Positions 37,397-52,796 of a stretch of DNA of 64,000 bases are shown here, piece after piece. The stretch comes from a virus (taxonomy: Duplodnaviria > Caudoviricetes): positions 1 to 64,000 of IMG/VR virus record IMGVR_UViG_3300031867_000031. One strand, 5' to 3'. Made by a program: the position numbers and the translations under genes. A model generated the notes under the pieces. That model ran no database searches and was not told where the DNA came from. It saw only the letters and a program-made list of their open reading frames with translations. Every line of letters starts with the position of its first letter. Within the stretch, counting starts at the first letter, position 1.

Positions 37397-37478
37397 AAAT
37401 AGAATACAGTCCGCATAAAATACCTTTCCTACATTGAGAGATACAAGAGGTGTGTCTCATATTTTGAAAGGAGAAAAG

Positions 37479-37898
37479 GTGTTAATTCCGATTAAGTTTC
37501 TAGAGTATATGGGATTTATTAAAAACGTGGAGGTTAGTGAAGAAGGACCATCATCTAAAGATTTGTTAGAGGAGCACTTGAAAGAGTGCATAACAGAAAA
37601 TGCGTTGGAGCACGTTGACACTGATAAAGCAACCAAGGGAGCACAGAACATCGAATTGCTCACAAAGTCAATGGAGCATCTTGAAAAAGCAGAAGCAGAG
37701 CGACTTAAAGTCGAACTTCAGCTAGCGGAGGCTCGGAGACGACAATGGGTTAATTGGGATGTTGTGCTGCCTAAAATGGTAGCAATAGGTGTCACAGGTG
37801 CCGTAACAGTGTTTTGGTTGTGCCTTGAACAAGGTACTCCGATACCAATGAGATTGGTGAAGATGGCATCGGACTTGACTGTCCCACGCGGACTGTAA
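37479..37898 (+). CDS. Coiled-coil protein with C-terminal TM
   Basis: GAAAGGAG RBS before GTG; hydrophobic VVLPKMVAIGVTGAVTVFW. Confidence 0.65.
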   Translation: MLIPIKFLEYMGFIKNVEVSEEGPSSKDLLEEHLKECITENALEHVDTDKATKGAQNIELLTKSMEHLEKAEAERLKVELQLAEARRRQWVNWDVVLPKMVAIGVTGAVTVFWLCLEQGTPIPMRLVKMASDLTVPRGL

Positions 37899-37909
37899 AA
37901 AACTCTAGA

Positions 37910-37950
37910 GGTGGTTAGTCGAAAGATTAACCACCTTTTCTTTTTTTTTC
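37910..37950 (+). terminator. Intrinsic terminator
   Basis: GGTGGTTAGTC-GAAA-GATTAACCACC then T-tract. Confidence 0.85.
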
Positions 37951-37982
37951 AAAAGATGATAGGAGGGAGGAGTAGAAGACAT

Positions 37983-38624
37983 ATGGAGCATATTCCTACT
38001 TTCATTGACCAATTAGATGCAGATTATATTTCACACCATGGCATTAAAGGAATGCGTTGGGGTGTAAGAAGATATCAAAATCCTGATGGCACATTAACGG
38101 CTAAAGGTAAACAAAGATATAAAAATACTAAGGTAATGTATAAAGATTTGAAAAAACAAGTACACAAGCAACGTGCTAAAGAACATGGCGGATCTAATAG
38201 ATGGAGGACAGTTACTCCAATAGGCGAACATTCTCGTAAATACATAGATGATATTTCGAAAAAAGAAGAGGCATATCGTAATTCAGATGCCTATAAGAAA
38301 TGGGAAAAAGATTATGATAGTTTTCAAAAAAATTGGAATAGAAAATTTGAAAAAACACCTACTTATGATTCAAAATTAATAGACCAATATAATAAAGAAG
38401 ATCGCGAAATGATTAAAAAACGACCTAGAAAAAATTTCAAAAGTCCCTATGATGGTTTTTATACAGTTACTTCACAAGGTAGAAAATACACTAAACGTTA
38501 TCTTAATGGTGCCGGCAGAGATTTATCTATGGCCTATGTTAGAGATTTGGGCTATTCAGAATCTACAGCTAGTAAAATGGTTGATCAAATGATAAAGTCT
38601 GGACGAACTCTTGGCATGGACTGA
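37983..38624 (+). CDS. HHG-motif cargo protein 6
   Basis: MEHIPTFIDQLDADYISHHGIKGMRWGVRRYQNPDGTLT. Confidence 0.85.
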   Translation: MEHIPTFIDQLDADYISHHGIKGMRWGVRRYQNPDGTLTAKGKQRYKNTKVMYKDLKKQVHKQRAKEHGGSNRWRTVTPIGEHSRKYIDDISKKEEAYRNSDAYKKWEKDYDSFQKNWNRKFEKTPTYDSKLIDQYNKEDREMIKKRPRKNFKSPYDGFYTVTSQGRKYTKRYLNGAGRDLSMAYVRDLGYSESTASKMVDQMIKSGRTLGMD

Positions 38625-38660
38625 CGATCAACCACTTTTTCTTTTTAAGGATTTTTCAAA

Positions 38661-38948
38661 ATGGAAGAAACGTTGTATATACTTATTAGAGAAAACATAA
38701 ACCATGGAATTCGATCTTATCAAATTATTGATTATAATACTGACTATGATGTTTTAAATAGTCAACGCGAGTATTTAATTAACCGCATTTTTGAGCGTGG
38801 CGATGGTTGGCTCTCTGAATTTGCATATGATTCATTTGGAAAATCATCAATTGTTAGATACGCTATGCTTCGGGATACTATTAGAATTTGTTTTTCTGAA
38901 GAGAAAAGTGTAGGTATACAATTTAAAATAATAATCCTGACTCATTAG
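38661..38948 (+). CDS. Hypothetical protein
   Basis: 95-aa ORF, AAGGA RBS. Confidence 0.55.
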   Translation: MEETLYILIRENINHGIRSYQIIDYNTDYDVLNSQREYLINRIFERGDGWLSEFAYDSFGKSSIVRYAMLRDTIRICFSEEKSVGIQFKIIILTH

Positions 38949-39000
38949 TTAATATTTTAAATCTAATTGAGTTCGCCAATTTTACCGACTCTTATATGAG

Positions 39001-39087
39001 AAGAATAGTAAAATAGTAGGTTAAAAGGTAAAACCACTATCACCGGACAGAAATACGGGTTCGAGCCCCGTCTATTTTACTATTCTT
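39001..39087 (+). ncRNA. tRNA-like small RNA with 16-bp closing stem and no normal anticodon loop
   Basis: D-arm GGTT-AAAAGGTAA-AACC, T-arm ACGGG-TTCGAGC-CCCGT, own promoter at 38973, T-tract after. Confidence 0.6.
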
Positions 39088-39123
39088 TTTATTTTTTAGC
39101 TTCACAAGAATAGGAGGGTAGAA

Positions 39124-39849
39124 GTGGAACACCTACCATCATTTATAGATGATCTTCATGTTGATATTAAGCCGTCATTTATTGCGCATTCATTTAGAGA
39201 TGAACATGATGCTAAAATGATGTATGGGTTGCCTAAGGTAAAGAAATTTCCTATGCCTGACGCAAAGCATGTACGATCTGCTATTAGGTTTTTTAATTAC
39301 GCTAAACCATCTCAAGAACAAGAGTTAGCTAATGCTATTCTAGCTCGAATGGATGATTATGGTATCGACCCCGATGATATTAATGTCGGTGATGATAATC
39401 GTTTTAAGAAATATTTACAGCATTCATATTTAGCGCATCATGGCATTAAAGGAATGCATTGGGGTGTGAGAAGGTATGAAAATTATGACGGCACTCTAAC
39501 CGCTGCCGGTAAAAAACGTTATGAAGGATTAGATCGCAAAAGTCAAAAAGCTAAAAAGAAATATTTAAAAATGATGGATAAAGATATGGAAAATCATTTT
39601 TACAATCAGTTAAGTCCGAATGCTAGAAAAGTTTCTGCAATTGGGCGCAATGGACGTGAGATACTTGGACAAGCTTGGGGAGAAGCGTATCGAAAAGGAT
39701 ACGTAACCGATAAAGATCATGCACAAATTAAGAAAGCAGCTAAAGAGACTCGTTCATATATGTCCAAAAAGTATGGCGATTCTGCAATGAAAGCTTTTAC
39801 AAGATCTGGAGTACTTTTTAGAAAAATTGATGATTTTGATACGTTATAG
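39124..39849 (+). CDS. HHG-motif cargo protein 7 (internal motif, extra N-terminal domain)
   Basis: FIAHS...KKFPMPDAKHVRSAIRFF...YLQHSYLAHHGIKGMHWGVRR. Confidence 0.85.
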   Translation: MEHLPSFIDDLHVDIKPSFIAHSFRDEHDAKMMYGLPKVKKFPMPDAKHVRSAIRFFNYAKPSQEQELANAILARMDDYGIDPDDINVGDDNRFKKYLQHSYLAHHGIKGMHWGVRRYENYDGTLTAAGKKRYEGLDRKSQKAKKKYLKMMDKDMENHFYNQLSPNARKVSAIGRNGREILGQAWGEAYRKGYVTDKDHAQIKKAAKETRSYMSKKYGDSAMKAFTRSGVLFRKIDDFDTL

Positions 39850-39939
39850 AATCAACTATACTTTTATATTTTTCGCAGAAAAAACTCCTCCTTTATAGCA
39901 AGAGTCCAAAAGAGACTTAACTATTGAGAGGAGTTGTAT

Positions 39940-40254
39940 ATGAGCGGGACAGCTATTCCAGCATATAACCATGATGACCGTAATCATTGGTTTATTTGGC
40001 ATGTGTTGGCTCACGAGCTCACGGAGGAGGATTTCGAGGCAATTCAGTTGGCCCTCATCGAGCGCGAGGATGATCACAAAGCGATTGACAAGACGCAAGT
40101 GGTGTTCCACGAATTCGATAAGGGAACTATGATGCAGCCAAGGCCTGTTCCTGAGTTTTATAAGCAAAAGGCGCATCGCTACGTAGACTGGTCTACGGCC
40201 ATGGATATTTGCATGGTCCTTAGCAAGTACACAGATTTCTATAGCAAGAAGTAA
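39940..40254 (+). CDS. Hypothetical cassette protein
   Basis: Promoter 39873, GGAG RBS, terminator 40265. Confidence 0.75.
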   Translation: MSGTAIPAYNHDDRNHWFIWHVLAHELTEEDFEAIQLALIEREDDHKAIDKTQVVFHEFDKGTMMQPRPVPEFYKQKAHRYVDWSTAMDICMVLSKYTDFYSKK

Positions 40255-40264
40255 AGGACTTTTG

Positions 40265-40310
40265 AAAAAGGATTGTGAGGTCGAAAGACTTTACAATCCT
40301 TTTTTCTTTT
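40265..40310 (+). terminator. Intrinsic terminator
   Basis: AAAAAGGATTGTGAGGTC-GAAA-GACTTTACAATCCTTTTT. Confidence 0.85.
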
Positions 40311-40485
40311 TTTTACTATACTTTATTTTTTAGGAGGAATTAGACGTTAGTTATATTTCAAATCATGGTATTTTAGTGTATGAAACACTCTTACAAAACC
40401 CCAGGTAAACGGCTTGTTAAAAAGCGTTTTTAGAGCTTAAAAATTGACAAACGACTAATTACCCATAAAGTTGGCGATTTCAATT

Positions 40486-40857
40486 ATGTCGTATGATAGA
40501 GATGGTGATATTTTTAAGCTTCATAATATAGGAGTCTCGGATATGAAACTTTCAGAGTTTTACAAATTGTCTAAACAACGAATTCGTCAAATTATTTTTG
40601 AGCAACGTCGTAGACATAGAAAAGGCAACCCTGATATTCCACAAATTGATACCATGTGCAGAATTCTTGGTTGGAGAGAAAATGAGAGAGGAAAACTTCA
40701 ATCGATTTTGCACAAGAATGGATACACTTCGTATGATGATAAATGGCGAGATTTATCCTCGGATGATATTTTAGCCATACCTTTGTTGGGGCCGTCTGCT
40801 GTGTGCATTATTTGGCTTGCTCAAAACATGGATGACGAAACGGATTCGACTAAATAG
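40486..40857 (+). CDS. sigma4-like HTH plus alphaCTD-like HhH protein
   Basis: YKLSKQRIRQII HTH; LSSDDILAIPLLGPSAV HhH. Confidence 0.6.
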   Translation: MSYDRDGDIFKLHNIGVSDMKLSEFYKLSKQRIRQIIFEQRRRHRKGNPDIPQIDTMCRILGWRENERGKLQSILHKNGYTSYDDKWRDLSSDDILAIPLLGPSAVCIIWLAQNMDDETDSTK

Positions 40858-40868
40858 GATTTGGATAT

Positions 40869-41057
40869 TTGATGATACTTTTAGTTATTAGCATTTTGGT
40901 ATCTATAACGATAGATGCTTCGCTTAAAGTAATTAGTTTTATGAGTATGTATTCGAGATATATGAGTTCTGCATATTTGAAATTTATTAGAGCGCAAATT
41001 GCTATTAGCATAATCGAGCTATTTAGTATTGCGTTGTTGATAGTTCGGTTGGGTTAG
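40869..41057 (+). CDS. Small membrane protein
   Basis: Two hydrophobic segments. Confidence 0.45.
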   Translation: MMILLVISILVSITIDASLKVISFMSMYSRYMSSAYLKFIRAQIAISIIELFSIALLIVRLG

Positions 41058-41071
41058 GAGGGTAAAAGATT

Positions 41072-41699
41072 ATGGAGTATCTTCCGACTTTTATTGATCA
41101 ATTAGATGTAGATTATATTTCACATCATGGAATTAAAGGAATGCATTGGGGGTATAAGAAGGTATCAGAATGCTGATGGTTCTTTGACACCTGCTGGAAG
41201 AAAACGGTATGACGAAACAACAAAGCTTATGCGACGTGCTGATTCTTATGAATCTGCTGCTAAACATTTAAATTCGCAAATACATCCTAACAAAAGTAGG
41301 ATAGAACGCGCTAGAATAATGACTCAAGCTGTAAAAGCACAACAAAAAGCGGATCGTATACGCTCAAGATTAGACCCCGATATTGTTTCTAAAATTGAAC
41401 AGGATAGAAAAATTGAATTGAAGAAAAAGCAAGCGGCAAAAGAAAAAGAATGGCATAATAGTCCATCTAGCAGAAGATATCGTTTTATGGATGACGCAAT
41501 GCATGAAGTATTTGGAGCAAATACCAAAAGTGATTATAGGAATCTATATAGAGAAATGAGTAAGGACAAACGTTTTAAAAATTTATTAGATTCTGAAGAT
41601 AATGATGATTACAAAGAAGCAGAAGCGGCTTGGCTTAAAAAGCATGGGTATTGGGAATCATATTTAGATGCTATACATAATGGTTATAAAGACATATAA
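41072..41699 (+). pseudogene. HHG-motif cargo protein 8, frameshifted in a G5 run
   Basis: MEYLPTFIDQLDVDYISHHGIKGMHWG then extra G in 41148-41152; GIRRYQNADGSLTPAG continues in another frame. Confidence 0.75.
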
Positions 41700-41729
41700 T
41701 CTCATATAGGATGATTGGTTAGTATATCT

Positions 41730-41772
41730 GGGGCTGGATGTCGTAAGATTTCCAGCTCCTTATATTTTTTTT
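41730..41772 (+). terminator. Intrinsic terminator
   Basis: GGGCTGGA...TCCAGCTC hairpin then T-tract. Confidence 0.65.
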
Positions 41773-41833
41773 GCCTACCTCGCTAAAAAAACTTTCCTAA
41801 AATAAGAGAAAGTTCTATAAAGGAGGTAAAGAA

Positions 41834-42058
41834 ATGAGTGAAATAAAATTTAGCGATAGAATGATATTTGCAACAAAGCATTTGATCAAGAGCATAGAGT
41901 TGTCGGTAGATAATTCTGTAGCATCTATAAAATCGATTGGTATGTTATCAAGAGGTAATATGGAGCAATGGAGTTATTCTCGAAGCTCTATGAAGACTAG
42001 AAAAGCTGCTAAGAATGTACATATTAAAATCGCTAAAGCAGCGATGGTTGTAAAATAG
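41834..42058 (+). CDS. Hypothetical cassette protein
   Basis: Promoter 41780, AGGAGG RBS. Confidence 0.7.
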   Translation: MSEIKFSDRMIFATKHLIKSIELSVDNSVASIKSIGMLSRGNMEQWSYSRSSMKTRKAAKNVHIKIAKAAMVVK

Positions 42059-42199
42059 AACTTTTTAGAGAAGTCGATGTATAGAAAGTTTATGCATGGA
42101 CTTTCTCTTTTTTTGTTATATTTACCTTTTGTAAAAATTTTTGTCTCGTTAAATTTACCTTTTGTATTATAAGAAGGGCGCTAGAAGGAGCGATGAAAA

Positions 42200-42355
42200 A
42201 TGAAGTGCGAAATTTGTAAGAAGAACAATGGACGGAAGTATAAAAGTGAAGTGTTTGATACGATTTGTCTTTGTGACAAATGTGTTAAACAACTTGGCGG
42301 AAAGAAAAAGGCCATTGAGGCTTATGAAATTGGGAATGTAGTTTTTGTTAAGTAG
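42200..42355 (+). CDS. Small zinc-finger protein (51 aa, not in track)
   Basis: MKCEICKK...CLCDKC; promoter 42146; GAAGGAG RBS. Confidence 0.7.
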   Translation: MKCEICKKNNGRKYKSEVFDTICLCDKCVKQLGGKKKAIEAYEIGNVVFVK

Positions 42356-42446
42356 TATTTAACCAGCGCCCTTCTTTTTACCATTGATTATATTTTTTCG
42401 CATTTTTAACTTTTATTTATATAGGATTCTATGAAAGGAGATAAAA

Positions 42447-42698
42447 GTGTATTTGACATCTTTTGAACAAATGTTATTGCAAGATCACATACAAGTTTAT
42501 AAGAATCGACGCGAAGCATTGTTAATAGATCTTAATATTTATAAGATGGATGTTAGCTTTATGCGAGATGCAATAAAGCGTAATGATTATAAAAGATATA
42601 AGGTTTGGAAAAAATTCGTATACAGATCATATAAACGAGTAAAAGTAACAGCACTACAAGTGTTGAAATACATGTTTGTTTATGCAAGATTGATTTAG
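42447..42698 (+). CDS. Hypothetical cassette protein
   Basis: Promoter 42398, GAAAGGAG RBS, GTG start. Confidence 0.7.
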   Translation: MYLTSFEQMLLQDHIQVYKNRREALLIDLNIYKMDVSFMRDAIKRNDYKRYKVWKKFVYRSYKRVKVTALQVLKYMFVYARLI

Positions 42699-42769
42699 AA
42701 TTCTATATAGACGCCGCTTTTACAGGGCGTTTATATTTTTGTCTCGCTATAATAACCATTCATATAATG

Positions 42770-42907
42770 AGGAAGAGGAGTATAAACCCCGGCAGGCTTA
42801 GGTGTCTTACCACTGCGCGGAGCCCTAAGTCAGGTCGGACAAATAGTTCAATGGTAGAACGCCGATCTATAATGACGGAGACTCAGGTTCGAAGCCTGAA
42901 ACTTCCT
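42770..42907 (+). ncRNA. tRNA-mimic small RNA with 5-prime insertion
   Basis: AGGAAG/CTTCCT closing stem, D-arm GTTC-AATGGTA-GAAC, T-arm TCAGG-TTCGAAG-CCTGA; promoter 42744. Confidence 0.55.
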
Positions 42908-42947
42908 TTTATATTTTTGTCTCGTTAAATTTACTTTCCCTAATATA

Positions 42948-43062
42948 GGAAGAGAGGTACATTTTATGCGAATGGAACGGCTGAAAAGCAAGGCGACACG
43001 GCAGTACCTGCGGTGACCCAGTAATAGGTAGCATATAGGTTAAAGGCCTATCATTTTTTTTT
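42948..43062 (+). ncRNA. Promoter-driven structured small RNA (or 16-aa micro-ORF)
   Basis: Promoter 42922; AGGTAC/GTACCT stem; ATAGG/CCTAT hairpin plus T-tract. Confidence 0.4.
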
Positions 43063-43151
43063 CGTTATATTTACTTTTTATAAAAATTTTTGCCTCGCTA
43101 AAAATACTATTCCTAATATAGGAAAGTTGGACCTAGTAGAAAGGCACAAAA

Positions 43152-43328
43152 ATGATGTCAAAGAAGTTTACGGATGCCACGACATGCTTGCTGGTTACAA
43201 CTATCGTAAGTGGTTACGTGGTGGCCAGGTTTGCACCACGTATCGGCTATACGATAGCCTGGACCAGCTACCTGTTGGCGGCTGGGACTTCCTTGGCAAG
43301 CGCAGTTTGCGCTTTCAAGGAACTCTAG
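43152..43328 (+). CDS. 58-aa two-TM membrane peptide (frame missed by ORF track)
   Basis: GAAAGG RBS then MMSKKFTDATTCLLVTTIVSGYVVARFAPRIGYTIAWTSYLLAAGTSLASAVCAFKEL; promoter 43095. Confidence 0.7.
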   Translation: MMSKKFTDATTCLLVTTIVSGYVVARFAPRIGYTIAWTSYLLAAGTSLASAVCAFKEL

Positions 43329-43460
43329 TTCTAAAAGAGAAGTTCATGTAGAAAGTTTATACATGGGCTTTCTCTTTTTCGTTATATTTACTTTTTGTAT
43401 TTTTTTTTCGCACATTTAACTAGTCCTTATATAGGTAGAACCTATAGAAAGGAATTTACG

Positions 43461-43715
43461 ATGAGTAAGATTTATAAGATCAAGTACCTCACTTGGTATG
43501 AAGATTGGGATCGTTATATTCAACATGAGTATACATATCTGAACGAAATATCGGATCTGGAGGCAGCGATAGCAATAGCAAAATCGGTTGTCGATCAGTA
43601 CATATTATGCTCAGATGACTATGCTACATTTGAACTGAACAATCACCATTTTGGCGCATACCAAGAGGACAGGATTATGGGTCAAGCTGACGGAATTCGA
43701 GTATGGGTTGAATGA
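43461..43715 (+). CDS. Cassette protein, copy 1 (MSKIYKIKY family)
   Basis: Near-identical to 44727-44981. Confidence 0.85.
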   Translation: MSKIYKIKYLTWYEDWDRYIQHEYTYLNEISDLEAAIAIAKSVVDQYILCSDDYATFELNNHHFGAYQEDRIMGQADGIRVWVE

Positions 43716-43807
43716 GCTATAGACGCCGCTTTTATAGGGCGTTTATATTTTTGCCTCGTTGAAAATACCATTACTTATATAGGAAGAAATCCGTAGAAAG
43801 GATAGAC

Positions 43808-44038
43808 ATGAAACATTGGTATTGGGCATGCGAACTTTCTAATGGCGAATTTACTGCAAACACATTTGCGGATGCATCGTCACTTTACGAGGTTTGGAAT
43901 AAGATTGAGCAAATCTTTACCAGGCGAGTAGCAAGGGGACGTATAGATCCGACTAGTTTAACAGTAGATGAAACTGGAATAAAGTTCGTAGAGACTCGTC
44001 ATCACGACCAAATCGAGTGGCGAATTTGTATGGATTAA
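43808..44038 (+). CDS. Hypothetical cassette protein
   Basis: Promoter 43756, GAAAGGA RBS. Confidence 0.75.
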   Translation: MKHWYWACELSNGEFTANTFADASSLYEVWNKIEQIFTRRVARGRIDPTSLTVDETGIKFVETRHHDQIEWRICMD

Positions 44039-44166
44039 ACCAAAGAGAGAAGTCAATGTATAGAAAGTTTATACATGGGCTTTCTCTTTTTGTTATATTT
44101 ACTTTTTGTATTTTTTTTTCGCAATTTTAACTCATACTATATAGGATGAGTTAAGATTGGAGATTT

Positions 44167-44457
44167 ATGAAATACGAAATAAAAATCGCATGGTATTTAT
44201 CAAAAAATTTACCAGTAATCGAACAAACTATTGGGTTTTGTGATAATAAAAAGAAAGCTTATAGATTAATTGTTGGTATAGCAAAAATGATTGCTAAGTA
44301 TCAAACAATTGACTATAACTGTATAGAATTAAAAAATTGTAAACGAGGCGCTATATTTGGAAAAATTGCGATTATTGAACACTTAGATAAAATGCAACGA
44401 AAGTATGGTCCATTTTATACCCATCCACTAGTGTTAGGGAAACCTAAAAACTTATAG
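44167..44457 (+). CDS. Hypothetical cassette protein
   Basis: Promoter 44119, GGGAG RBS. Confidence 0.7.
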   Translation: MKYEIKIAWYLSKNLPVIEQTIGFCDNKKKAYRLIVGIAKMIAKYQTIDYNCIELKNCKRGAIFGKIAIIEHLDKMQRKYGPFYTHPLVLGKPKNL

Positions 44458-44508
44458 CAAGTTGATATTTAACTTGCTTTTAGTTTTTTTTACGTTAGGA
44501 GATGTATT

Positions 44509-44685
44509 ATGGTAGATGAACAGAAAAAACTTAAAAAGGTTCTCGATGATATTCAAGAAAAACTTACTCATTATCCTTCTATAGTGGATGAAGATCCAAA
44601 CCAAGATGAATATTATTTAGTGGTTTTACCATTAACAAAATCTGAAATGAAAGCGTTAGAAAAACTTATATCTTCGCACATTTAA
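44509..44685 (+). CDS. Small hypothetical protein (58 aa, not in track)
   Basis: AGGAG RBS; stop falls inside the next promoter copy. Confidence 0.55.
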   Translation: MVDEQKKLKKVLDDIQEKLTHYPSIVDEDPNQDEYYLVVLPLTKSEMKALEKLISSHI

Positions 44686-44726
44686 CCAGTCCTTATATAG
44701 GTAGAACCTATAGAAAGGAATTTACG

Positions 44727-44981
44727 ATGAGTAAGATTTATAAAATCAAGTACCTCATTTGGAATGAAGATTGGGATCGTTATATTCAACACGAGTATAC
44801 ATATCTGAACGAAATATCGGATCTGGAGGTAGCGATAGCAATAGCAAAATCGCTTGTCGACCAGTACATATCGTGCTCGGATAACTATATCACATTTGAG
44901 CTTAACGATCGCCATTTTGGTGCATACCAAGAGGACAGGTTTATGGCTCAAGCAGACGGAATTCGAGTATGGGTTGCGTAA
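44727..44981 (+). CDS. Cassette protein, copy 2 (MSKIYKIKY family)
   Basis: Duplicated together with its promoter and terminator. Confidence 0.85.
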   Translation: MSKIYKIKYLIWNEDWDRYIQHEYTYLNEISDLEVAIAIAKSLVDQYISCSDNYITFELNDRHFGAYQEDRFMAQADGIRVWVA

Positions 44982-45078
44982 GATATAGGCGCCGCTTTTA
45001 CAGGGCGTTTATATTTTTGCCTCGTTGAATTTACCTTTACTTATATAGGAAAGTAATAAACTATTCAGGAGGTAAAAA

Positions 45079-45285
45079 ATGAGTTTTTATTGCGTTTATG
45101 GCTATGCAGACAACGACTGCGGATGGACTGAAGATTTCAACAATCTCGAAGAGGCTAAAAATCGTCTTTCGGAGATTATGACAGAAGATGAGGTTGCTGA
45201 TATTACAGAGACAGAAGGCGGCGAGAATAGTATAGTGCATTACAAGACAAATGACGGATACAACTACGGAATCAGTTTGTTCTAA
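45079..45285 (+). CDS. Small acidic cassette protein
   Basis: Promoter 45022, AGGAGG RBS. Confidence 0.75.
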   Translation: MSFYCVYGYADNDCGWTEDFNNLEEAKNRLSEIMTEDEVADITETEGGENSIVHYKTNDGYNYGISLF

Positions 45286-45394
45286 CTAAAAAGAGAGGTC
45301 GACGTATAGAAAGTTTATACGTGGACTTTCTCTTTTTTATATTTACTTTTTGTAAAAATTTTTGCTTCGCTAAAATTACTATTCATATTTTAGA

Positions 45395-45567
45395 AAGGGA
45401 GAGAAACTAAGAGATCGTAGAGCCATTGCTGGTGAAAACCCAGCCATCTATGCGAACGGCCACCTGTAGTCAGCATAGACTCGCCCCTTTTATATTTGTA
45501 GCGGACCTAGGTGGTATGAGGGAGACTAGGCAAAGAGGAATCGACAAAGGTCGAGCGGTAAATCCGT
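45395..45567 (+). ncRNA. Two tandem multibranched structured RNA elements
   Basis: Promoter 45367; AAGGG/CCCCTT, GCTGG/CCAGC, CTATGC/GCATAG; then GCGGA/TCCGT, CCTAG/CTAGG, TCGAC/GTCGA. Confidence 0.4.
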
Positions 45568-45724
45568 GGGAAAAACAGGTATTTATTTTTTTTCTCGCAA
45601 AAATTACGTTTCATATAATGAGATGGAGTAGAGTAAGAATGTAGCAGGTAAACAGTGCTTGTTATATTTTTATTGCTGCTCAAAATTTTTATGGCCAAAA
45701 GTGCCAAGAGAGGAGTTTTGTAGT

Positions 45725-46069
45725 ATGAAGCTGTCAAAAGAGATTTTGGATAAACTTCGTGATGCTTGGGGTGATCAAGGCGAGCTTTATCCGTGGACGA
45801 CCGGTGCAGAGGTTCTTACGGGTATCCCGGTCATGGAAGATGAGGAACAAGATAAGGTCTCTGCGACTGATAAGAAATCGACCAAGCCGCTCTATAAGAC
45901 TTACGAAGACCTTGCTTATATTTCAGCAATGGAATCAACTCGCTGCCACATGTTGATCAATAAGCTTAAGGCCACTATTGATCTTCTTGATGCTCAACAG
46001 CAGTACTATGAAGCTATAAGTGCCATCGAGCGCGATAATGAGTCGTTTGGATTTGATCTAGACATTTAA
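45725..46069 (+). CDS. Hypothetical protein, C-terminal coiled coil
   Basis: GAGGAG RBS; terminator at 46081. Confidence 0.7.
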   Translation: MKLSKEILDKLRDAWGDQGELYPWTTGAEVLTGIPVMEDEEQDKVSATDKKSTKPLYKTYEDLAYISAMESTRCHMLINKLKATIDLLDAQQQYYEAISAIERDNESFGFDLDI

Positions 46070-46080
46070 ATGCAATAAGA

Positions 46081-46122
46081 ATATGAGAGGTGCTAATGGA
46101 ATAAGCATCTCTCATATTTTTT
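46081..46122 (+). terminator. Intrinsic terminator
   Basis: ATATGAGAGGTGCT...AGCATCTCTCATAT then T-tract. Confidence 0.8.
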
Positions 46123-46139
46123 ACTGAAAGGTTTGTGTA

Positions 46140-46412
46140 ATGAGCAAAACATGGCTAAGCGAAGACGATATTGACCCATTTGATCAAGCAGCGGTGCGTG
46201 CTTACTTACTAGACATTGAGCGAGAATACAATAAAAAACGAGAACAACTCTATTATAAAACTCAATCATATTTTCATCAATCTATATCCAGCGATTACAC
46301 TAAAGAAGAAGATCTTCACGAAATCATTAATGAGTGTGAACGATTGAAGCAGCAACATAGAGATTTTAAAAAATTTGTAGCCGATATTAGAGGAACTAAA
46401 TACGTTATTTAA
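46140..46412 (+). CDS. Hypothetical helical protein
   Basis: GAAAGG RBS. Confidence 0.7.
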   Translation: MSKTWLSEDDIDPFDQAAVRAYLLDIEREYNKKREQLYYKTQSYFHQSISSDYTKEEDLHEIINECERLKQQHRDFKKFVADIRGTKYVI

Positions 46413-46438
46413 ATAATCAAGATTAGAAAGGATCAATA

Positions 46439-46741
46439 ATGCTTGAAGTACATGTTATATTTCCTGAGCAGAAAGATGCTTATGTAGCAAATACTAGAGT
46501 GTGCGAATTTTTTCAAGGTTCGTTAGCATTTATTGATAATAATATTATCGTAACACCTGTTGTGTCAGAATACATAGGCGATCGTAAAACATGGGCGTTT
46601 GATATTTGCTTTTCCGATGAAGGCACGGACCATAGACTTGTTATTACTGGCGGCGAGCTTCTTTTGCAAAACGGCATGAGTAATGTATGGGCATTTAGTA
46701 AAGTGGACAATTATGTCAATCGAAAAGATAGCACGGAATAA
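46439..46741 (+). CDS. Hypothetical protein
   Basis: GAAAGGA RBS. Confidence 0.7.
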   Translation: MLEVHVIFPEQKDAYVANTRVCEFFQGSLAFIDNNIIVTPVVSEYIGDRKTWAFDICFSDEGTDHRLVITGGELLLQNGMSNVWAFSKVDNYVNRKDSTE

Positions 46742-47084
46742 AGAAATTTTGGCGAAACATCGAGCCGGATTGTCATATTCTGACTTAGCGAATGAATACG
46801 AAATTAGCATACCTAGAATTCGACAAATACTTCAAAAAGAACGAGCATATGGATTATCCAAGCCAAGCATGATATTTGAAATTAAACAATCATGTGAAGA
46901 TTTTAATGCTGCAGATGGTATGCTTTTCAGAATTCTAAATGCTCTACATAACGAACGTATTGATATTCACGGCAGATGGCTAAAACTATCCAGAGAGGAG
47001 ATGTTGTCAATACGAGGAATAGGTCAACAAGCCGTTGATATTTTAATACATGCACAAGAGATTGCAAAAAAAAGTGAAAGGTGA
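46713..47084 (+). CDS. sigma4-like HTH plus alphaCTD-like HhH protein
   Basis: RNKEIL...GLSYSDLANEYEISIPRIRQIL; LSREEMLSIRGIGQQAV. Confidence 0.7.
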   Translation: MSIEKIARNKEILAKHRAGLSYSDLANEYEISIPRIRQILQKERAYGLSKPSMIFEIKQSCEDFNAADGMLFRILNALHNERIDIHGRWLKLSREEMLSIRGIGQQAVDILIHAQEIAKKSER

Positions 47085-47344
47085 TACACGATATGGGTAA
47101 GATTCGATTTTTTATTAAAGGTATGCACACGACTTTTGATCTAGTTCTCATAGTAACGATATGGGCCCTTTCTGAAAAGAATACTCGTCTCGAAAATGAA
47201 ATAAAAGATTTGACAAAACAGAATCCTCGTTCACCATATTCTTTTAAGAAACAGTCGACAACCAAATCTGTACCGAAAGAACAAGCTAAGTATCCTATCG
47301 GTTTTGCATCAGTTCTTGATATTTTCGAGGATAATAATGATTGA
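47081..47344 (+). CDS. Single-TM protein
   Basis: FDLVLIVTIWAL then coiled coil. Confidence 0.55.
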   Translation: MIHDMGKIRFFIKGMHTTFDLVLIVTIWALSEKNTRLENEIKDLTKQNPRSPYSFKKQSTTKSVPKEQAKYPIGFASVLDIFEDNND

Positions 47345-47630
47345 CGCACGTGATTATTCCACATTGGAAGAACTCAAAAAAGCAATGATGCATGAGTGTG
47401 ACGCGCAAGTTTCAGAAATAATGATGTCTGAATTACGATCTTTAGATGCTGATATTTCTCAAATGCAAAGCTTAACCAATAACTATTCTTTTATTAATGA
47501 GGTAGCGAACCTTAAACGTAACGATATTTATTGGAAAGTAGATCGTATTCAAGAATTAGCAAAAAGAGTTTTTTATACAGCATTATCAATGAAAAACACA
47601 TGCCGACTTATACCAGGAGATGATATTTAA
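47337..47630 (+). CDS. Hypothetical coiled-coil protein
   Basis: GAGG RBS; coupled ORF. Confidence 0.6.
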   Translation: MIDARDYSTLEELKKAMMHECDAQVSEIMMSELRSLDADISQMQSLTNNYSFINEVANLKRNDIYWKVDRIQELAKRVFYTALSMKNTCRLIPGDDI

Positions 47631-47920
47631 TGAGGATGCCTGATAATCCGCATACTTCTGTGAAGCCTGAGGTTAGAGCTGCAATATTGGATGAGCCAGA
47701 AAAAAGATTAGATTTTTTAAAAAGTCAGGTGGTCTTTCTAGAAGAGAATCTGACGGATGATGAAAAATCTGACAAACTTATTGCAGCAAAGTTGGAAGCG
47801 TTGACGCAAAAAATTTCTCAGTTAGAAAATTTAGTAAATCAAATGAGTGACGCTTGCGAAAAAGGTGAGAAAGAAGTCATTGCATTACTTAACACTTTTG
47901 AGCCTATTAAACGTGATTGA
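47630..47920 (+). CDS. Hypothetical coiled-coil protein
   Basis: Start/stop overlap. Confidence 0.65.
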   Translation: MRMPDNPHTSVKPEVRAAILDEPEKRLDFLKSQVVFLEENLTDDEKSDKLIAAKLEALTQKISQLENLVNQMSDACEKGEKEVIALLNTFEPIKRD

Positions 47921-47979
47921 TATTCTCGCAATTTTTACGTTTTGTATAATAGGTTAGGTAGGCATAGATTGAAAAGGAG

Positions 47980-48216
47980 ATGATTGCTATGCCGAGTGGA
48001 GTTAAGATTGCGAAGTTTGTCGGTGGACTAATTGAGGTATGCTTTCTAGTGTCGTTTGTATACGAGTGCGGCAAGGAAGCTGGGCGAAAGGAGCAGCAAG
48101 AAGAGACTGCTCAGCAAGCTCAGGATCCTTCGCTGATCGATGCAAAGGACTTTGTGGAGCTGCTAAAAAATGTTGACAAGGAAGTAATCAGCAAAGCTCG
48201 GTTTACAGTTAAGTAA
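47980..48216 (+). CDS. Single-TM cassette protein
   Basis: Promoter 47926; AAAGGAG RBS; terminator 48243. Confidence 0.7.
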   Translation: MIAMPSGVKIAKFVGGLIEVCFLVSFVYECGKEAGRKEQQEETAQQAQDPSLIDAKDFVELLKNVDKEVISKARFTVK

Positions 48217-48242
48217 GCCAAGTAAAGCCTTAAAACCTATAT

Positions 48243-48277
48243 AGAAGGATCTGTAGAAATACAGGTCCTTCTTTTTT
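48243..48277 (+). terminator. Intrinsic terminator
   Basis: AGAAGGATCTGTA-GAAA-TACAGGTCCTTCT then T-tract. Confidence 0.85.
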
Positions 48278-48302
48278 ATTTTTTAAAAGGAGAATTTTTA
48301 AC

Positions 48303-48668
48303 ATGCTTATTCCGCTAAAACTTTACGGATTTTTGTCAAATTTACATGATGCTGCAATTGATATAAAAAATGATAGTAAAACTAAAGCAGGAACAGTTAT
48401 TGAATACATTATCGATAATCCAGATAAAGTAATTCTTGGAATTGGTACAGTAGCCAGTCTTCTGAGAGCTAGTCAAAGTCTTGTTGTAAGTCATCGAAAT
48501 TATTCTCAGCGCAAGTATGCAGAGCGGTCATATTACGATCCTCATACTCATACTAAGTGGATGCTTCGCAGACAACTTACTAATTACGAAAAGAAATCAC
48601 TTAATCAACGAGTCAGCAACGGAGAAACTGCCGTTGATATTTTAGAAGAAATGGGGGTACTTAAATGA
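48303..48668 (+). CDS. Conserved phage hypothetical protein
   Basis: YYDPHTHTKW.LRRQLT...GET..DILEEMGVLK. Confidence 0.7.
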   Translation: MLIPLKLYGFLSNLHDAAIDIKNDSKTKAGTVIEYIIDNPDKVILGIGTVASLLRASQSLVVSHRNYSQRKYAERSYYDPHTHTKWMLRRQLTNYEKKSLNQRVSNGETAVDILEEMGVLK

Positions 48669-49009
48669 CTGAACAAATAGATCCTTTAGAAAACAAATCT
48701 CAAAAAGACGTTCATTTATATTTGTGTGATGGAAAAGCTTGTTCCGAAGAAGACAAAAAGTGCTGTTGGACACAAAATTTACCACCCGATTTAACATGCA
48801 GACATACAACAAACGAAGAGCATTCATTAGCTAAAAAACTCAGGGGTCTAATTCCAACAAAATTCTACCCATTTTCAGGAAACAAGCATGTTTTGGTCGA
48901 GCACTTTGATTATAAGTATGCAAAGAAAGATGCTTTAGAAAAATTTCTGAATTCTCTACCCAAAAAGAAAGACACTGGTGAATCGAATAATGACGAAGAA
49001 CAAGGATAA
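48665..49009 (+). CDS. Cys-containing hypothetical protein
   Basis: YLCDGKAC...CRHTT..EH putative metal site. Confidence 0.65.
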   Translation: MTEQIDPLENKSQKDVHLYLCDGKACSEEDKKCCWTQNLPPDLTCRHTTNEEHSLAKKLRGLIPTKFYPFSGNKHVLVEHFDYKYAKKDALEKFLNSLPKKKDTGESNNDEEQG

Positions 49010-49475
49010 CCCATTTCATCAGGCATGTATTGATGCGTGCATCAAACTTGATAAGAAAAAGGGACTTGGAACTTACGCTTATAACATTTTAGAGGACAAT
49101 GGTATAATTGAGCATATTCTTAATGGAACTTTGAATTTGAATGATTATACCGATAGGGATTTAGAATCCTTTCGCGGATTGGGTTTTACCACAATTGAAA
49201 TACTTCGCGTAGCGTGGAATTTATATATGAAAAAGCCTTTGCAAAAAGCATTGGATTTAGATCCAGCAATGCTGCGAGGATATTCTACTGGTAAAGATCT
49301 TATTCGATGGATTAAAGACCATAAACTCGAACACAAACGAGTATATTATGCGCATCATGATTGTGTCGGTTTTGTAATAGAAACGCGCGAATTCGAAGGT
49401 ATGGAGTATGACACCACTGCAGATCTAAATGTTATTAATGGCGATTATGTAGAAGTTCGGGAGCATATTTCATGA
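48990..49475 (+). CDS. alphaCTD-like domain protein
   Basis: LEDNGIIEHILNG...YTDRDLESFRGLG aligns with 57660 paralogue. Confidence 0.6.
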   Translation: MTKNKDNPFHQACIDACIKLDKKKGLGTYAYNILEDNGIIEHILNGTLNLNDYTDRDLESFRGLGFTTIEILRVAWNLYMKKPLQKALDLDPAMLRGYSTGKDLIRWIKDHKLEHKRVYYAHHDCVGFVIETREFEGMEYDTTADLNVINGDYVEVREHIS

Positions 49476-49666
49476 GTGGACAAAATATTTATGCTATGTT
49501 CTGCAAAGTATTCGGCGGATTGAAAAACGACGTTCGAATGTTTAAAACCCATGGAGATCGGTCTATTATATTATACCTGACAAATGGTGAACTGCCATTA
49601 TTGTTTACAGTAGTCGATAGCCAAAGAGAGATTTGGACATTAGAGCCTGTAATTAATACTAAATGA
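49472..49666 (+). CDS. Hypothetical protein
   Basis: ATGA overlap with upstream gene. Confidence 0.6.
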   Translation: MSGQNIYAMFCKVFGGLKNDVRMFKTHGDRSIILYLTNGELPLLFTVVDSQREIWTLEPVINTK

Positions 49667-49688
49667 TATTTTGAAAAGAGGTTGCATA

Positions 49689-50180
49689 ATGAGTTTTAAT
49701 TTTTTAAATGGACTTGATTTAAATAATGGTAGAATTTTTATTATTATGGTCGGACCACCTGGAGCAGGAAAGACGATCGCATCTAAGAAACTCGTAGACG
49801 ATTACGGTTTTATTCGAATTTGTCCGGATGATATTCGGGAAGAAATTACTGGTAACGCTAATAATCAGGATCGTAATGAAGAGGTATTCACCAAAGTTTA
49901 TTCGAGACTTAGTGAATACTTGAATCAAGGTTTTAATGTGGTGTATGATGCTACAAATTGTAGATCTGCATATCGTTTTAAAGTTCTTGATATTGCTCGA
50001 AAATCGGCTAATACGATAGTTTGTATGGTATCAACTACTCCTATTGGCGATTGTTTGGAGCGTAATAAAAATCGTTACGAACGTCATGTTCCAGAAGAAG
50101 TAATTGAGCGAATGTATTTTACACTCAAAAAGCATCCGCCAACGATTTTTGAAGGGTATGATCTAATTGTCGGTTTCTAA
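49689..50180 (+). CDS. P-loop kinase (AAA_33 / polynucleotide-kinase-like)
   Basis: GPPGAGKT Walker A, CPDDIR, YDATN, VPEEVIERM. Confidence 0.85.
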   Translation: MSFNFLNGLDLNNGRIFIIMVGPPGAGKTIASKKLVDDYGFIRICPDDIREEITGNANNQDRNEEVFTKVYSRLSEYLNQGFNVVYDATNCRSAYRFKVLDIARKSANTIVCMVSTTPIGDCLERNKNRYERHVPEEVIERMYFTLKKHPPTIFEGYDLIVGF

Positions 50181-50532
50181 TAAAGAGTATGATTCATGCT
50201 CTTCAGAATTATATTCGAATTTGGATAAAATCAGACATTTAATTTCGGAGCCAGCTCTATATGAGCAAATGGCAGAAGAATGTTCCGAGCTCAGTCAAGC
50301 ACTTTTGAAAAAAGCTCGTAAACTGCGAAATGAAAACTATACGCCAAAGTCATATTCTGAAATTAATGACAATTTAATTGAAGAATACACGGATGTCAGA
50401 CTTTGTGCAATGGTGCTTTCCTTATCAATTGACGAGACAATTCTCTCTGAAAAACTAAATCGATGGATATTTCGAAATAGTGATATAGGAAAAAATCTTA
50501 TGGCGAATGGAGAACCATATGAAAATTCTTGA
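50167..50532 (+). CDS. MazG-like nucleotide pyrophosphatase
   Basis: QMAEECSELSQALLK...EEYTDV. Confidence 0.7.
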   Translation: MSVSNKEYDSCSSELYSNLDKIRHLISEPALYEQMAEECSELSQALLKKARKLRNENYTPKSYSEINDNLIEEYTDVRLCAMVLSLSIDETILSEKLNRWIFRNSDIGKNLMANGEPYENS

Positions 50533-51163
50533 TGCTTCTTACAAAATTGTGCGTCTCCAAAAAGAAATTGATGTAGATCAGATAAGTGATGCATATTGTA
50601 TGTGCTACGAAACACCGCATCCCACATCATATGAAAAGCAATGTGATATTATTAGAAATCATAGAAAACATGGATCGCCGCTTGAGCATTCTATTATGAC
50701 TGTCGATTTCGTAATTAATCGTGGAATTAGTCATGAATTGGTTCGCCATAGGCATACTGGATATTCTCAGCAGTCTACTCGCTATTGCAATTTTAGTAAA
50801 AATAAATTCGGTAACAGTGTAAGTTTTATACGAGATTCTAGAATCTCGATCGATAATGCGGCGCTGTACGATCTATGGATTCGTGGATTACAAGCTGATG
50901 AAGACGAATATTTTGAACGTTTAAACATGGGTCAAACACCAGAAGAAGCACGAGGATGTTTGCCGAATGATCTGGCAACACGACTAAAAGTATCGACTAA
51001 TTTCCGCGAATGGCATGATATTTTCACGTTGCGTTGTGATACTCATGCCCATTATCAAATGCGAGAGATTATGAGGCCTTTGTGCGAAGAGATGATTTGC
51101 GAGCTTCCTTGTATTTTTGACGATATTCATCCCGAGTTGGATTTTGTGGTGCTTGATGATTAA
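50519..51163 (+). CDS. thyX: FAD-dependent thymidylate synthase
   Basis: HGSPLEH, SHELVRHRHTGYSQQSTRY (RHRX7S), EEARGCLP, LRCDTHAHYQMR. Confidence 0.92.
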   Translation: MKILDASYKIVRLQKEIDVDQISDAYCMCYETPHPTSYEKQCDIIRNHRKHGSPLEHSIMTVDFVINRGISHELVRHRHTGYSQQSTRYCNFSKNKFGNSVSFIRDSRISIDNAALYDLWIRGLQADEDEYFERLNMGQTPEEARGCLPNDLATRLKVSTNFREWHDIFTLRCDTHAHYQMREIMRPLCEEMICELPCIFDDIHPELDFVVLDD

Positions 51164-51380: not shown

Positions 51381-51393
51381 GGAATTATATTTT

Positions 51394-51717: not shown

Positions 51718-51781
51718 CTCTCGCAGAATTAACTCGCACTATAATAGGTAGGTATTACAAATACGTTTGAAAGGCGATGCA

Positions 51782-52783: not shown

Positions 52784-52796
52784 GAGGCGAATTTTT

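Follow-up and report, generated by a model that had tools for sequence, protein, structure and literature searches.

In many short units of a gut phage and its relatives, the predicted first bases of the RNA may pair with a sequence just before the unit's own terminator

Why are the small genes of a tailed phage bracketed by inverted repeats that reach from the promoter to beyond the gene's end, and do these repeats act in RNA? For the window, the 64,000-nt stretch of gut-phage DNA analysed here, an earlier note had listed ten such pairs and proposed that each cassette is clasped by repeats at constant positions, joining the transcript start to the stop-codon region. Nine of the ten pairs are fully complementary, with 0–1 G-U each; the tenth, 43129-36/43325-32, contains an internal C·U mismatch. 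Several helices are longer than first listed: 41807-18/42055-66 (12 bp), 42171-82/42365-76 (12 bp, perfect) and, on the minus strand, 1182-1169/1013-1000 (14 bp). That the arm sequences differ in every cassette was borne out, and non-cognate arms fail to pair. The claim that each cassette is clasped was overstated; a specific helix is present in four to six of the eleven coding units in the window and absent from three. Together with the related phages, the sequences point to a gene-by-gene RNA "clasp" in many short units, in which a unit's first bases would pair with sequence just before its own terminator.

The units are headed by a 28-nt promoter motif (TCGC, seven variable positions, AC, six variable positions, T, then NNNAT, then RGG), of which a position weight matrix (PWM) finds about 25 copies. 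It is of a non-sigma70 type: most copies have no TTGACA-type -35 box, and the invariant TCGC and AC lie inside the would-be spacer. The promoter's downstream edge, at motif positions 24-28, is where the 5′ arm begins, and for this arm the proposed constancy of position holds. Helix 5′ boundaries peak at positions 25-26; coverage by cognate helices is at background (~5%) over positions 6-21, rises between 24 and 27, is 20-28% at positions 27-39, and is again at background by about 44. Strong 5′ arms span positions 26-40 and stop short of the Shine-Dalgarno sequence, with 11-34 nt left before the start codon. The few helices in which GAAAGGAG takes part pair with generic terminator flanks. Transcription probably starts at the conserved purine near motif position about 26. 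Reading the TATAAT-like hexamer as a sigma70 -10 box would instead put +1 near position 32 and leave half of each arm, positions 26-31, outside the transcript. The start at about 26 is favoured because the onset of complementarity is sharp at 25-27 and because the phage encodes an RNA polymerase with a GADFDGD motif (L001:15356-18118), which makes a non-sigma70 start site plausible.

Complementarity was assessed in 102 independent promoter-headed units or groups from the window, related phages and metagenome contigs, comparing cognate ends (5′ and 3′ ends of the same unit) with non-cognate ends (those of different units). Among the 11 window cassettes, the longest cognate helix averaged 8.8 bp, compared with 6.35 bp (sd 1.1, max 9) for the 110 non-cognate combinations, and mean duplex energy was -15.4 versus -10.6 kcal/mol. 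None of 20,000 permutations matched the window's helix length (one G-U permitted) or its duplex energy, and counting Watson-Crick pairs only gave p = 0.0025 for helix length. The excess recurred in relatives: 18 of 53 ortholog groups ranked in the top 5% of non-cognate pairs (2.65 expected; p = 4.5e-11), as did 13 of the 36 groups without a member from this genome (p about 1e-8). Over the 102 groups, mean duplex energy was -13.6 kcal/mol for cognate and -10.0 kcal/mol for non-cognate ends (p<1e-9), with reversed-sequence controls at -10.4 kcal/mol, and 13 of the 102 units reached -20 kcal/mol where 0-1 were expected. Promoter-less ORFs of the same genome (n=82) showed no cognate excess (-9.91 vs -9.93 kcal/mol, p = 0.64), and the off-diagonal values of the 11-cassette comparison showed no enrichment of arm pairing between adjacent units. 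As a class, then, the complementarity lies far above the shuffled background, both by permutation of the window cassettes and across the 102 groups, and the leader/3′-UTR complementarity expected of bacterial cis 5′UTR-3′UTR pairing exceeds chance against non-cognate, reversed and promoter-less controls. The share of units that are closed ranges from about a quarter (strict helix and energy criteria) to two thirds (folding).

In the window, units 41780, 42146, 42398, 47926 (by energy) and the minus-strand unit 1207 exceed background singly; units 39873, 43408/44674 and 43756 are borderline, and 43095, 44119 and 45022 are at chance level. Unit 39873 has a weak match to the promoter motif (39873-39900, plus strand as for all units below unless stated; PWM score 12.5). 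Its 5′ arm CAAGAGTCC (39899-39907) and 3′ arm GGACTTTTG (40256-40264), which adjoins the terminator at 40264-40305, form 9 bp with one G-U (rank fraction 0.08). A rival local partner for this 5′ arm lies at about 39912-39918. In unit 43756, the weak 5′ arm AATCCGTA (43788-43795) pairs over 8 bp, one of them G-U, with TATGGATT (44029-44036) in the last codons; the pair is not above background alone, and its changes in orthologues are wobble-compatible. Such cases raise the possibility that the pairing is driven by chance and motif composition, that is, by purine-rich leaders (AGGAAAG) facing T-rich terminator flanks and by TATAG-like palindromes in promoters and terminator stems. In units 43095, 44119, 45022 and 43756 this would account for the pairs of 7-8 bp, a shortness that the earlier note had itself pointed out; these pairs lie within the range of non-cognate ends and are not individually significant. 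It would also explain why the unit-42398 helix extends upstream into TATATA, as well as the residual long-range pairing in the swap control described below. But it leaves the cognate-specific excess unexplained in any control. For the class as a whole chance complementarity was accordingly rejected, and we consider it extremely unlikely as a general explanation; it stands for individual weak pairs.

The position of the 3′ arm is fixed relative to the terminator or T-run and not, as had been thought, to the stop codon, from which its start ranges between -22 and +35. Two classes of unit can be distinguished on this basis. In class II, which comprises most closed units, the 3′ arm lies mostly 0-4 nt, and in a few cases up to 15 nt, before a complete and strong terminator hairpin. 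In class I, the T-run follows the 3′ arm directly, so that the 5′/3′ helix forms the terminator stem, with the ORF or small RNA as its loop. At least eight independent units have this arrangement (a 10-17 bp, GC-containing helix, a T-run at once, and no other hairpin before the next promoter), among them 42146 and 1207 in the window and units in L147, L143, L139, L152 and L176. They thus share the stem and immediate U-run of an intrinsic terminator, and lack its short hairpin loop, an entire ORF or small RNA of about 55-330 nt taking that place.

Unit 42146 (promoter 42146-42173, PWM score 28.2) is the clearest class I case. Its 5′ arm AAGAAGGGCGCT (42171-42182, motif positions 26-37) forms a perfect 12-bp duplex of -22.5 kcal/mol, which beats every non-cognate pair; a 51-codon ORF (42200-42355) lies in the loop, and the 3′ arm with its T-run, AGCGCCCTTCTT (42365-42379), is the unit's only terminator-like element. 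Unit 1207, on the minus strand (promoter 1180-1207, PWM score 25.6), has the 5′ arm GAGAACGTAGACGA at 1169-1182 (motif positions 26-39) and the 3′ arm TCGTCTACGTTCTT at 1000-1013, followed by a T-rich tail and no other terminator hairpin. The 14-bp helix, with one G-U, is paired in the whole-transcript minimum free energy (MFE) fold and encloses an ORF of 38 codons (1033-1149) read from the sequence.

In the remaining strong window units, the 3′ arm lies at or just before a terminator. In unit 41780 (promoter 41780-41807), the 5′ arm AGAAAGTTCTAT (41807-41818) forms 12 bp with ATAGAACTTTTT (42055-42066), which overlaps the stop codon of a 74-codon ORF (41834-42058) and adjoins the hairpin at 42067-42108; in the L083/L147 orthologue the 5′ arm has been remodelled with complementarity kept. 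In unit 42398 (promoter 42398-42425), ATAGGATTCTA (42421-42431) pairs over 11 bp, with one G-U, with TAGAATTCTAT (42696-42706), which likewise overlaps the stop codon and adjoins the terminator at 42706-42735. The 3′ arm carries a C-to-T change in L082 that retains pairing as G-U; the arm is a palindrome, and can equally be read as a direct or an inverted repeat. Unit 47926 (promoter 47926-47953) has an interrupted helix, in which ATAGGTT, a 4-nt internal loop and AGGC (47949-47963) face GCCT, an internal loop and AACCTAT (48223-48240), 2 nt before the terminator at 48243-48272; duplex energy is -17.7 to -22 kcal/mol (rank fraction 0.037). Overlap with the stop codon is common among class II arms and tells against closing helices, since a terminating ribosome would melt such arms.

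The class I layout suggests that termination or attenuation of the phage RNA polymerase might be the primary role, the 5′ arm being the upstream strand of a whole-unit terminator (class I) or part of a pre-formed helix on which the terminator stacks (class II), with ribosomes on the leader perhaps tuning read-through to the following unit. Supporting this possibility, the 3′ arms of class I units are found 7-31 nt beyond the stop codon, mostly outside the footprint of a terminating ribosome, and non-coding units share the design. Yet most closed units, being class II, possess a complete strong terminator anyway, and with 150-330 nt in the loop intrinsic termination is kinetically disfavoured. 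We regard this alternative as unlikely but the most serious of those considered.

Non-coding units on the same promoter are closed alike, from motif position 26, and include the longest helix found. In the tRNA-like unit 38973 (promoter 38973-39000, PWM score 19.4), a 19-bp terminal helix joins 38998-39016 to 39072-39090, which runs into the U-run; in a conserved 150-nt tRNA-like unit (promoter 42744-42771), GAGGAAG (42769-42775) pairs with CTTCCTT (42902-42908) just before the T-run. Both were identified in MFE folds. Because helices are longest (17-19 bp) around structured non-coding RNAs such as that at 38998-39090, the arms might be processing stems, whose 5′/3′ duplex a double-strand-specific RNase would cut to give mature RNAs with defined paired ends. 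The 5′/3′ duplex of Staphylococcus aureus icaR is an RNase III substrate (PMC7821165), and stacking on the terminator would here yield a continuous helix of 25-30 bp. Against the ~20 bp associated with RNase III, though, the phage helices are mostly 8-14 bp, which is short, with a few of 17-19 bp, and would exceed 20 bp only if stacked; moreover, units with their own promoter and terminator require no processing for separation. Processing is quite improbable as the main function.

Whole-transcript partition functions paired the first 12 nt with the 3′-end region (mean probability above 0.5) in 65 of 102 units, compared with 17% when the 5′ end was taken from another unit. RNAalifold places the terminal helix outermost in orthologues, and whole-transcript folding recovers it too. 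In four orthologues of unit 42146, ten of the 12 pairs are invariant and two changed only to G-U, while the ORF and 3′-UTR spacer diverge. Compensatory changes include a C-G replaced by U-A (L149/L147 pair), a U-A replaced by C-G (L171/L090 pair) and the remodelled distal helix half of the unit-41780 family. The covariation anticipated for these cassettes was found in part. Wobble-compatible and a few compensatory changes occur, the tally being 4 compensatory and 11 one-sided compatible changes versus 34 "broken" cells, many of them in helices that are weak or align poorly; where helices are interrupted, and at their flanks, G·U mismatches number 15 and A·C mismatches 3, an excess that is not significant against a compositional background of 36:18. 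The evolutionary support for the helices is thin. Selection at the RNA level, as the earlier note proposed, is nonetheless favoured because the orthologue changes are wobble-compatible or compensatory and because folding recovers the terminal helix; it is partly supported, too, by complementarity that is cognate-specific, replicated in relatives and absent without the promoter, in arms lying between promoter edge and T-run.

The same observations bear on a role in DNA, under which the arms would be scars of genes inserted into promoter-proximal hairpin loops, or recombination or cruciform signals of mobile cassettes, with no part in RNA. Without its ORF a class I unit would be reduced to a short, perfect terminator, nearly empty units occur at 55104 and 65687 (the latter with a 3-codon mini-ORF), the array is mosaic between relatives, and the 5′ arm overlaps conserved promoter positions 24-28. 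But each unit has arm sequences of its own, which sets the arms apart from transposon ends and attC core sites, and G-U wobble and compensatory changes maintain the pairing. The signal runs from the promoter's downstream edge, where it begins sharply, to the T-run and so within the predicted RNA, and neighbouring units show no enrichment. We therefore judge a purely DNA-level origin very improbable.

On balance, the repeats seem somewhat more apt to be RNA-level "closing helices" that hold both RNA ends, probably for end protection, than anything else. Transcripts from the phage-specific promoter would begin near motif position 26, and their first 8-17 nt would pair with a unit-specific sequence at their own 3′ end. 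In class II, the closing helix and terminator hairpin could stack, burying the 5′ end at the junction; in class I, the helix would also define the 3′ end. With both ends in one helical unit, short early mRNAs and small RNAs might be shielded from decay that starts at a free 5′ end (RNase J1 or RNase Y type) and also from 3′ exonucleases. If 5′ protection were strictly required, local 5′ hairpins should be more frequent in units that lack a long-range helix; no such enrichment is seen. A bolder proposal, to which we give little credence, is that through its closing helix each unit autonomously controls termination and attenuation by the phage's single-chain RNA polymerase: the 5′ end would have to fold back to build or buttress the terminator, a free or ribosome-covered leader would decide between stopping and running into the next early gene, and new genes would be taken up into promoter-hairpin "landing pad" loops.

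Flanking sequences that pair over a distance, with a functional RNA in the loop, recall the leader-trailer helices of 16S and 23S rRNA and the RNase III sites of T7 early RNA. Those stems, at least about 20 bp long, are cleaved by RNase III within a long polycistronic precursor; the phage helices, in contrast, are 8-19 bp long and lie at the very ends of predicted primary transcripts. Class I units resemble intrinsic terminators in their GC-containing stem followed directly by a T-run, but their loop of 150-330 nt holds an entire ORF, and the predicted RNA 5′ end supplies the upstream stem strand. Integron cassettes and transposon terminal inverted repeats were rejected as models, the phage arms differing per unit with no shared core or end sequence.

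The array itself resembles the PeSL (promoter-early stem-loop) cassettes of T4-type phages, in which small accessory ORFs are bounded by repeated promoter-plus-terminator modules and shuffled between relatives (Arbiol et al. 2010, PMC2839356); the many promoter copies, recurrent terminator types and mosaic orthology with L082 and L083 all fit. PeSL stem-loops, however, are local hairpins in the intergenic module, and cross-gene, unit-specific pairing is not described for them (PMC2839356); their promoters are sigma70-type, whereas the present motif does not fit a sigma70-consensus early promoter, most copies having no TTGACA-type -35 box.

Clasps of the kind proposed here had been described only in a few single bacterial mRNAs. 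The S. aureus icaR 3′ UTR pairs with the ribosome-binding site through an anti-Shine-Dalgarno sequence and blocks translation, and RNAIII has a long-range cis helix between its 5′ and 3′ ends (PMC7821165). The phage units would likewise pair an RNA's two ends in cis over a long range; blockade of the icaR type was rejected for them, the 5′ arms ending upstream of the Shine-Dalgarno sequence. Closest is the hbs mRNA of Bacillus subtilis, a short monocistronic message whose leader forms a helix of about 14 bp with the part of the 3′ UTR that immediately precedes the terminator; this helix leaves the Shine-Dalgarno sequence free and modulates ribonuclease access (Braun, Durand & Condon 2017, PMC5737220). 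The predicted phage helix would similarly join the leader to the region by the terminator. Unlike that of hbs, it starts at the predicted first nucleotide, either adjoins the terminator or stands in for it, and closes non-coding RNAs as well; and whereas hbs is a single cellular gene, the phage layout recurs in dozens of units, with a different sequence each time.

The phage genome is 82,331 bp long, the window being its first 64 kb, and carries siphovirus-type structural genes for terminase, portal and a tape measure protein of 1864 aa. The reference phage collection held no close relative of this phage; uncultured relatives, by terminase similarity, number in the hundreds. Between 39.8 and 48.3 kb the plus strand carries an array of very short units. 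Each opens with a conserved motif resembling a promoter; a leader bearing a strong Shine-Dalgarno sequence comes next, then an ORF of 50-105 codons, in some units replaced by a small structured RNA, and finally a terminator. Units are named here by the start coordinate of the motif. With the array as nucleotide query, the phage collection gave no match in either near or distant mode; two cassette proteins used as peptide-pattern queries retrieved no loci, and the unit-42146 protein matched only a single cluster in a large protein database. The ORFs at 43461-43715 and 44727-44981 are 84-codon paralogues with identical leaders. The tail of ORF 44509-44685, which precedes the second paralogue, overlaps that paralogue's promoter, an arrangement suggestive of a recent duplication or insertion of a cassette.

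An earlier note held that each cassette ORF is clasped by an inverted repeat. When all ten listed pairs were re-read, nine were complementary as described and the pair 43129/43325 proved to be internally mismatched. Leaders (motif position 24 to start codon) were then compared with stop-codon regions (+/-25 nt) in all combinations of the 11 coding units in the window. The longest cognate helix, formed within one unit, averaged 8.8 bp, versus 6.35 bp (maximum 9) for non-cognate combinations, and mean duplex energies were -15.4 and -10.6 kcal/mol, respectively. The complementarity is above randomised background: in 20,000 permutations, neither the helix length with one G-U allowed nor the duplex energy of the cognate pairing was equalled, and Watson-Crick-only helix length gave p = 0.0025. 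The signal is carried by units 41780 (12 bp), 42146 (12 bp, perfect), 42398 (11 bp), 47926, 39873 and minus-strand 1207 (14 bp); the arm of unit 42398, TAGAATTCTA, is palindromic and equally readable as a direct repeat. Units 43095, 44119 and 45022 were at chance level, 8-bp pairs had no significance individually, and pairing between the 3' end of one window unit and the 5' end of the next was at background. The inverted-repeat observation is real but partial, a specific helix being present in four to six of the eleven window units rather than in every cassette.

The motif that heads the units has a fixed 28-nt frame: TCGC, seven variable bases, AC, six variable bases, T, NNNAT and RGG. Positions T1, C2, G3, C4, A12, C13, T20, A24 and T25 are near-invariant. 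R26, which is 99% purine, comes next, then G27 and G28, and beyond about position 29 conservation is lost. The genome holds about 25 copies, at 37411-55131 in the window, in L001, a stretch of the same genome (genome 63565-77438), and on the minus strand at 1180-1207. Related phage genomes of 62-88 kb also carry the motif; a scan of viral contigs with the exact promoter pattern gave no match.

Alignment on this frame defines the 5' arm of the closing helix. Coverage by cognate helices of >=8 bp is at background (about 5%) over motif positions 6-21, rises at positions 24-27, holds at 20-28% over 27-39 and is back to background by ~44, with 5' helix boundaries peaking at positions 25-26. The 5' arm thus runs from the downstream promoter edge to a point short of the Shine-Dalgarno sequence. 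Arm positions had been described as constant, which is borne out by this onset but not by the distance from the stop codon: the 3' arm, previously assigned to the stop-codon region, starts anywhere from -22 to +35 relative to the stop and is tied instead to the end of the unit. There it takes two forms. In class I (at least eight cases, among them units 42146 and 1207 and units in the related stretches L147, L143, L139, L152 and L176) a T-run directly follows the 3' arm and any other hairpin is absent. In class II (~10 strong cases, e.g. 41780, 42398 and 47926) the arm lies 0-4 nt before a separate terminator hairpin.

Terminators of two recurrent families are reused behind different ORFs, at 42067-42115, 43336-43378, 44046-44090 and 45294-45335, and also at 42706-42735, 43717-43745 and 44983-45012. 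Type A has a stem of ~17 bp, AGAGAAGTC..GACTTTCTCT, and type B is TATAGACGCC..GGCGTTTATA. The consensus with which leaders begin (AGGAAAGT) is similar to the type A ascending arm, which makes leaders complementary in a generic way to the descending arm. In ORF 39942-40254, the last codons and 3' flank (40240-40262) directly repeat the unit's own leader (39893-39918), TATAGCAAGA ... GGACTT, as is also the case in orthologues from the related stretches L149, L164 and L175. Since this leader also folds into a local hairpin, the 3' copy could act as a competing alternative partner.

Replication was sought in relatives (L082, L083, L088, L090 and others) retrieved through a neighbouring protein, together with whole related genomes and relatives found with a conserved tRNA-like RNA of the array as query. 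Units were called automatically from a promoter position weight matrix, a Shine-Dalgarno-preceded ORF and a downstream T-run, and clustered into ortholog groups. The cognate duplex fell within the best 5% of non-cognate pairs in 18 of 53 groups (2.65 expected; p = 4.5e-11), and in 13 of the 36 groups without a member from this genome. Across 102 groups, cognate duplexes had a mean energy of -13.6 kcal/mol; non-cognate pairs averaged -10.0, and reversal of either window, a control retaining local composition, gave -10.4; 13 units reached -20 kcal/mol, where 0-1 were expected. No cognate effect was seen in 82 ORFs of this genome that lack the promoter motif (-9.91 vs -9.93 kcal/mol). Partition functions computed for whole transcripts had the first 12 nt paired with the 3'-end region in 65 of 102 units (mean probability above 0.5), versus 17% when the first 16 nt were exchanged among units. 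Minimum-free-energy folds of the window units recovered the same helix partners.

RNA-level selection, as the earlier note proposed, is probable. The complementarity is confined to the stretch from promoter edge to T-run, and class I arms together with their T-run are built like intrinsic terminators. Four orthologues of the unit-42146 family differ in ORF and 3'-UTR spacer but keep the arms nearly unchanged: 10 of 12 pairs never vary, and the two that do change to G-U. RNAalifold placed the terminal helix outermost in two families. Compensatory changes occur between L149 and L147, where GAGAAAGGAGCAAG/TTTGCTCC... becomes ...GTAAG/TTTACTCC..., and between L171 and L090 (TGTTACT/AGTAACA to CGTTACT/AGTAACG); the unit-41780 helix has its distal half remade as TTTG/CAAA in L147. 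Pooled over orthologues, however, the support is thin, four double and 11 single compatible changes being set against 34 broken cells, many of which belong to helices that are weak or align poorly. Where helices are interrupted, and at their flanks, the mismatches comprised 15 G.U and 3 A.C, an asymmetry no more than suggestive, since it falls short of significance given a compositional background of 36:18. In two related stretches (L145, units at 4183 and 6816 on the minus strand; L162, unit 753), one and the same leader precedes two different ORFs, and the leader of one orthologue complements the 3' flank of another (GGTAATAGA/TCTATTACC). This suggests recombination inside units that parts matched arms.

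The RNA-level reading depends on where transcription starts. If the AT-rich hexamer were read as a sigma70-type element, +1 would lie near position 32 and half of each arm would be untranscribed, so that the complementarity at positions 26-31 would require a DNA-level explanation. A TTGACA-type -35 box is absent from most motif copies, and the invariant blocks occupy what would be the sigma70 spacer. A start at about position 26, predicted from the helix onset, is the simpler reading given the sharp onset at 25-27, the invariant purine at 26 and a phage-encoded polymerase; it would give a T7-like layout, with a conserved motif extending up to +1. The polymerase is a candidate only: a 920-aa protein (L001:15356-18118; genome 78356-81118) has GADFDGD at residues 539-545, flanked by helix-turn-helix or sigma-region-4-like modules at both ends, and gave no sequence match to solved structures. 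Single-chain two-barrel RNA polymerases are known from YonO (PMC5467207), and phage P23-45, which also has such a polymerase, carries conserved motifs directly upstream of mapped transcription starts (PMC10770324). The 920-aa protein is a candidate enzyme of this kind that could read the 28-nt motif, and the promoter class is probably read by a YonO-like polymerase.

Non-coding units with the same promoter follow the same closing rule. The 93-nt promoter-driven RNA at 38998-39090 has a 19-bp terminal helix, starting at motif position 26 and running into the U-run, round a tRNA-like fold that ARAGORN called at 39010-39080 as a tRNA of undetermined type with a two-base anticodon. A conserved structured RNA of ~150 nt (42769-42918), with its own promoter, is closed by GAGGAAG/CTTCCTT and has a partial tRNA match (Rfam RF00005 at 42844-42899, 34 bits). 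It served as a handle for retrieving related arrays: a 37-nt core with two positions left free matched 28 metagenome stretches, and a 42-nt version matched five viral-contig stretches. Near-empty units were seen at window 55104-55190 and genome 65687-65770 (L001 about 2687-2770), consisting of a promoter, a 7-8 bp closing helix round a ~30-nt loop and a T-run; in one of them, the loop carries a 3-codon mini-ORF (ATG GAA AAG TAA) together with a Shine-Dalgarno sequence.

The closing helix would bring the start of the RNA up against the terminator hairpin, or would itself be the terminator stem, so that both RNA ends would come to lie in one helical unit. We favour end protection as its function, with 3'-end definition in addition in class I units. 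A simple protection model is weakened on two counts. Units without a long-range helix showed no enrichment of local 5' hairpins among 102 units, which leaves such hairpins unsupported as a substitute; and in many class II units the arm overlaps with the stop codon, where terminating ribosomes would melt it. Termination or attenuation, to which the terminator-like form of class I arms is relevant, and RNase III-type processing of the helices are live rivals to protection. A reading as circular or ligated mRNA is unsupported, since this genome gave no match to RNA ligase or RtcB families.

The helices provide dozens of natural cases of 'paralogous covariation', a test set for mRNA end protection or termination, and a concrete start-site prediction (motif position ~26) for an uncharacterised promoter class. 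The compact module of promoter, closing stem and terminator might also be of use in stabilising short transcripts. A literature search turned up no description of closing helices as a systematic rule in phage transcription units, or of the same layout in phage mRNAs. The array is like the PeSL cassettes of T4-type phages, in which repeated promoter-plus-terminator modules surround small shuffled ORFs; unlike the promoters here, those of PeSL are sigma70-type, and PeSL is without described gene-spanning, unit-specific pairing (PMC2839356). The nearest mechanistic relatives are isolated 5'/3'-UTR interactions (hbs, icaR and RNAIII) and rRNA leader-trailer stems. In icaR the pairing covers the Shine-Dalgarno sequence, whereas the arms here leave it uncovered, and the helix is here a design rule for a whole class of phage units, coding and non-coding, unit-specific in sequence and linked to a phage-specific promoter and to the terminator.
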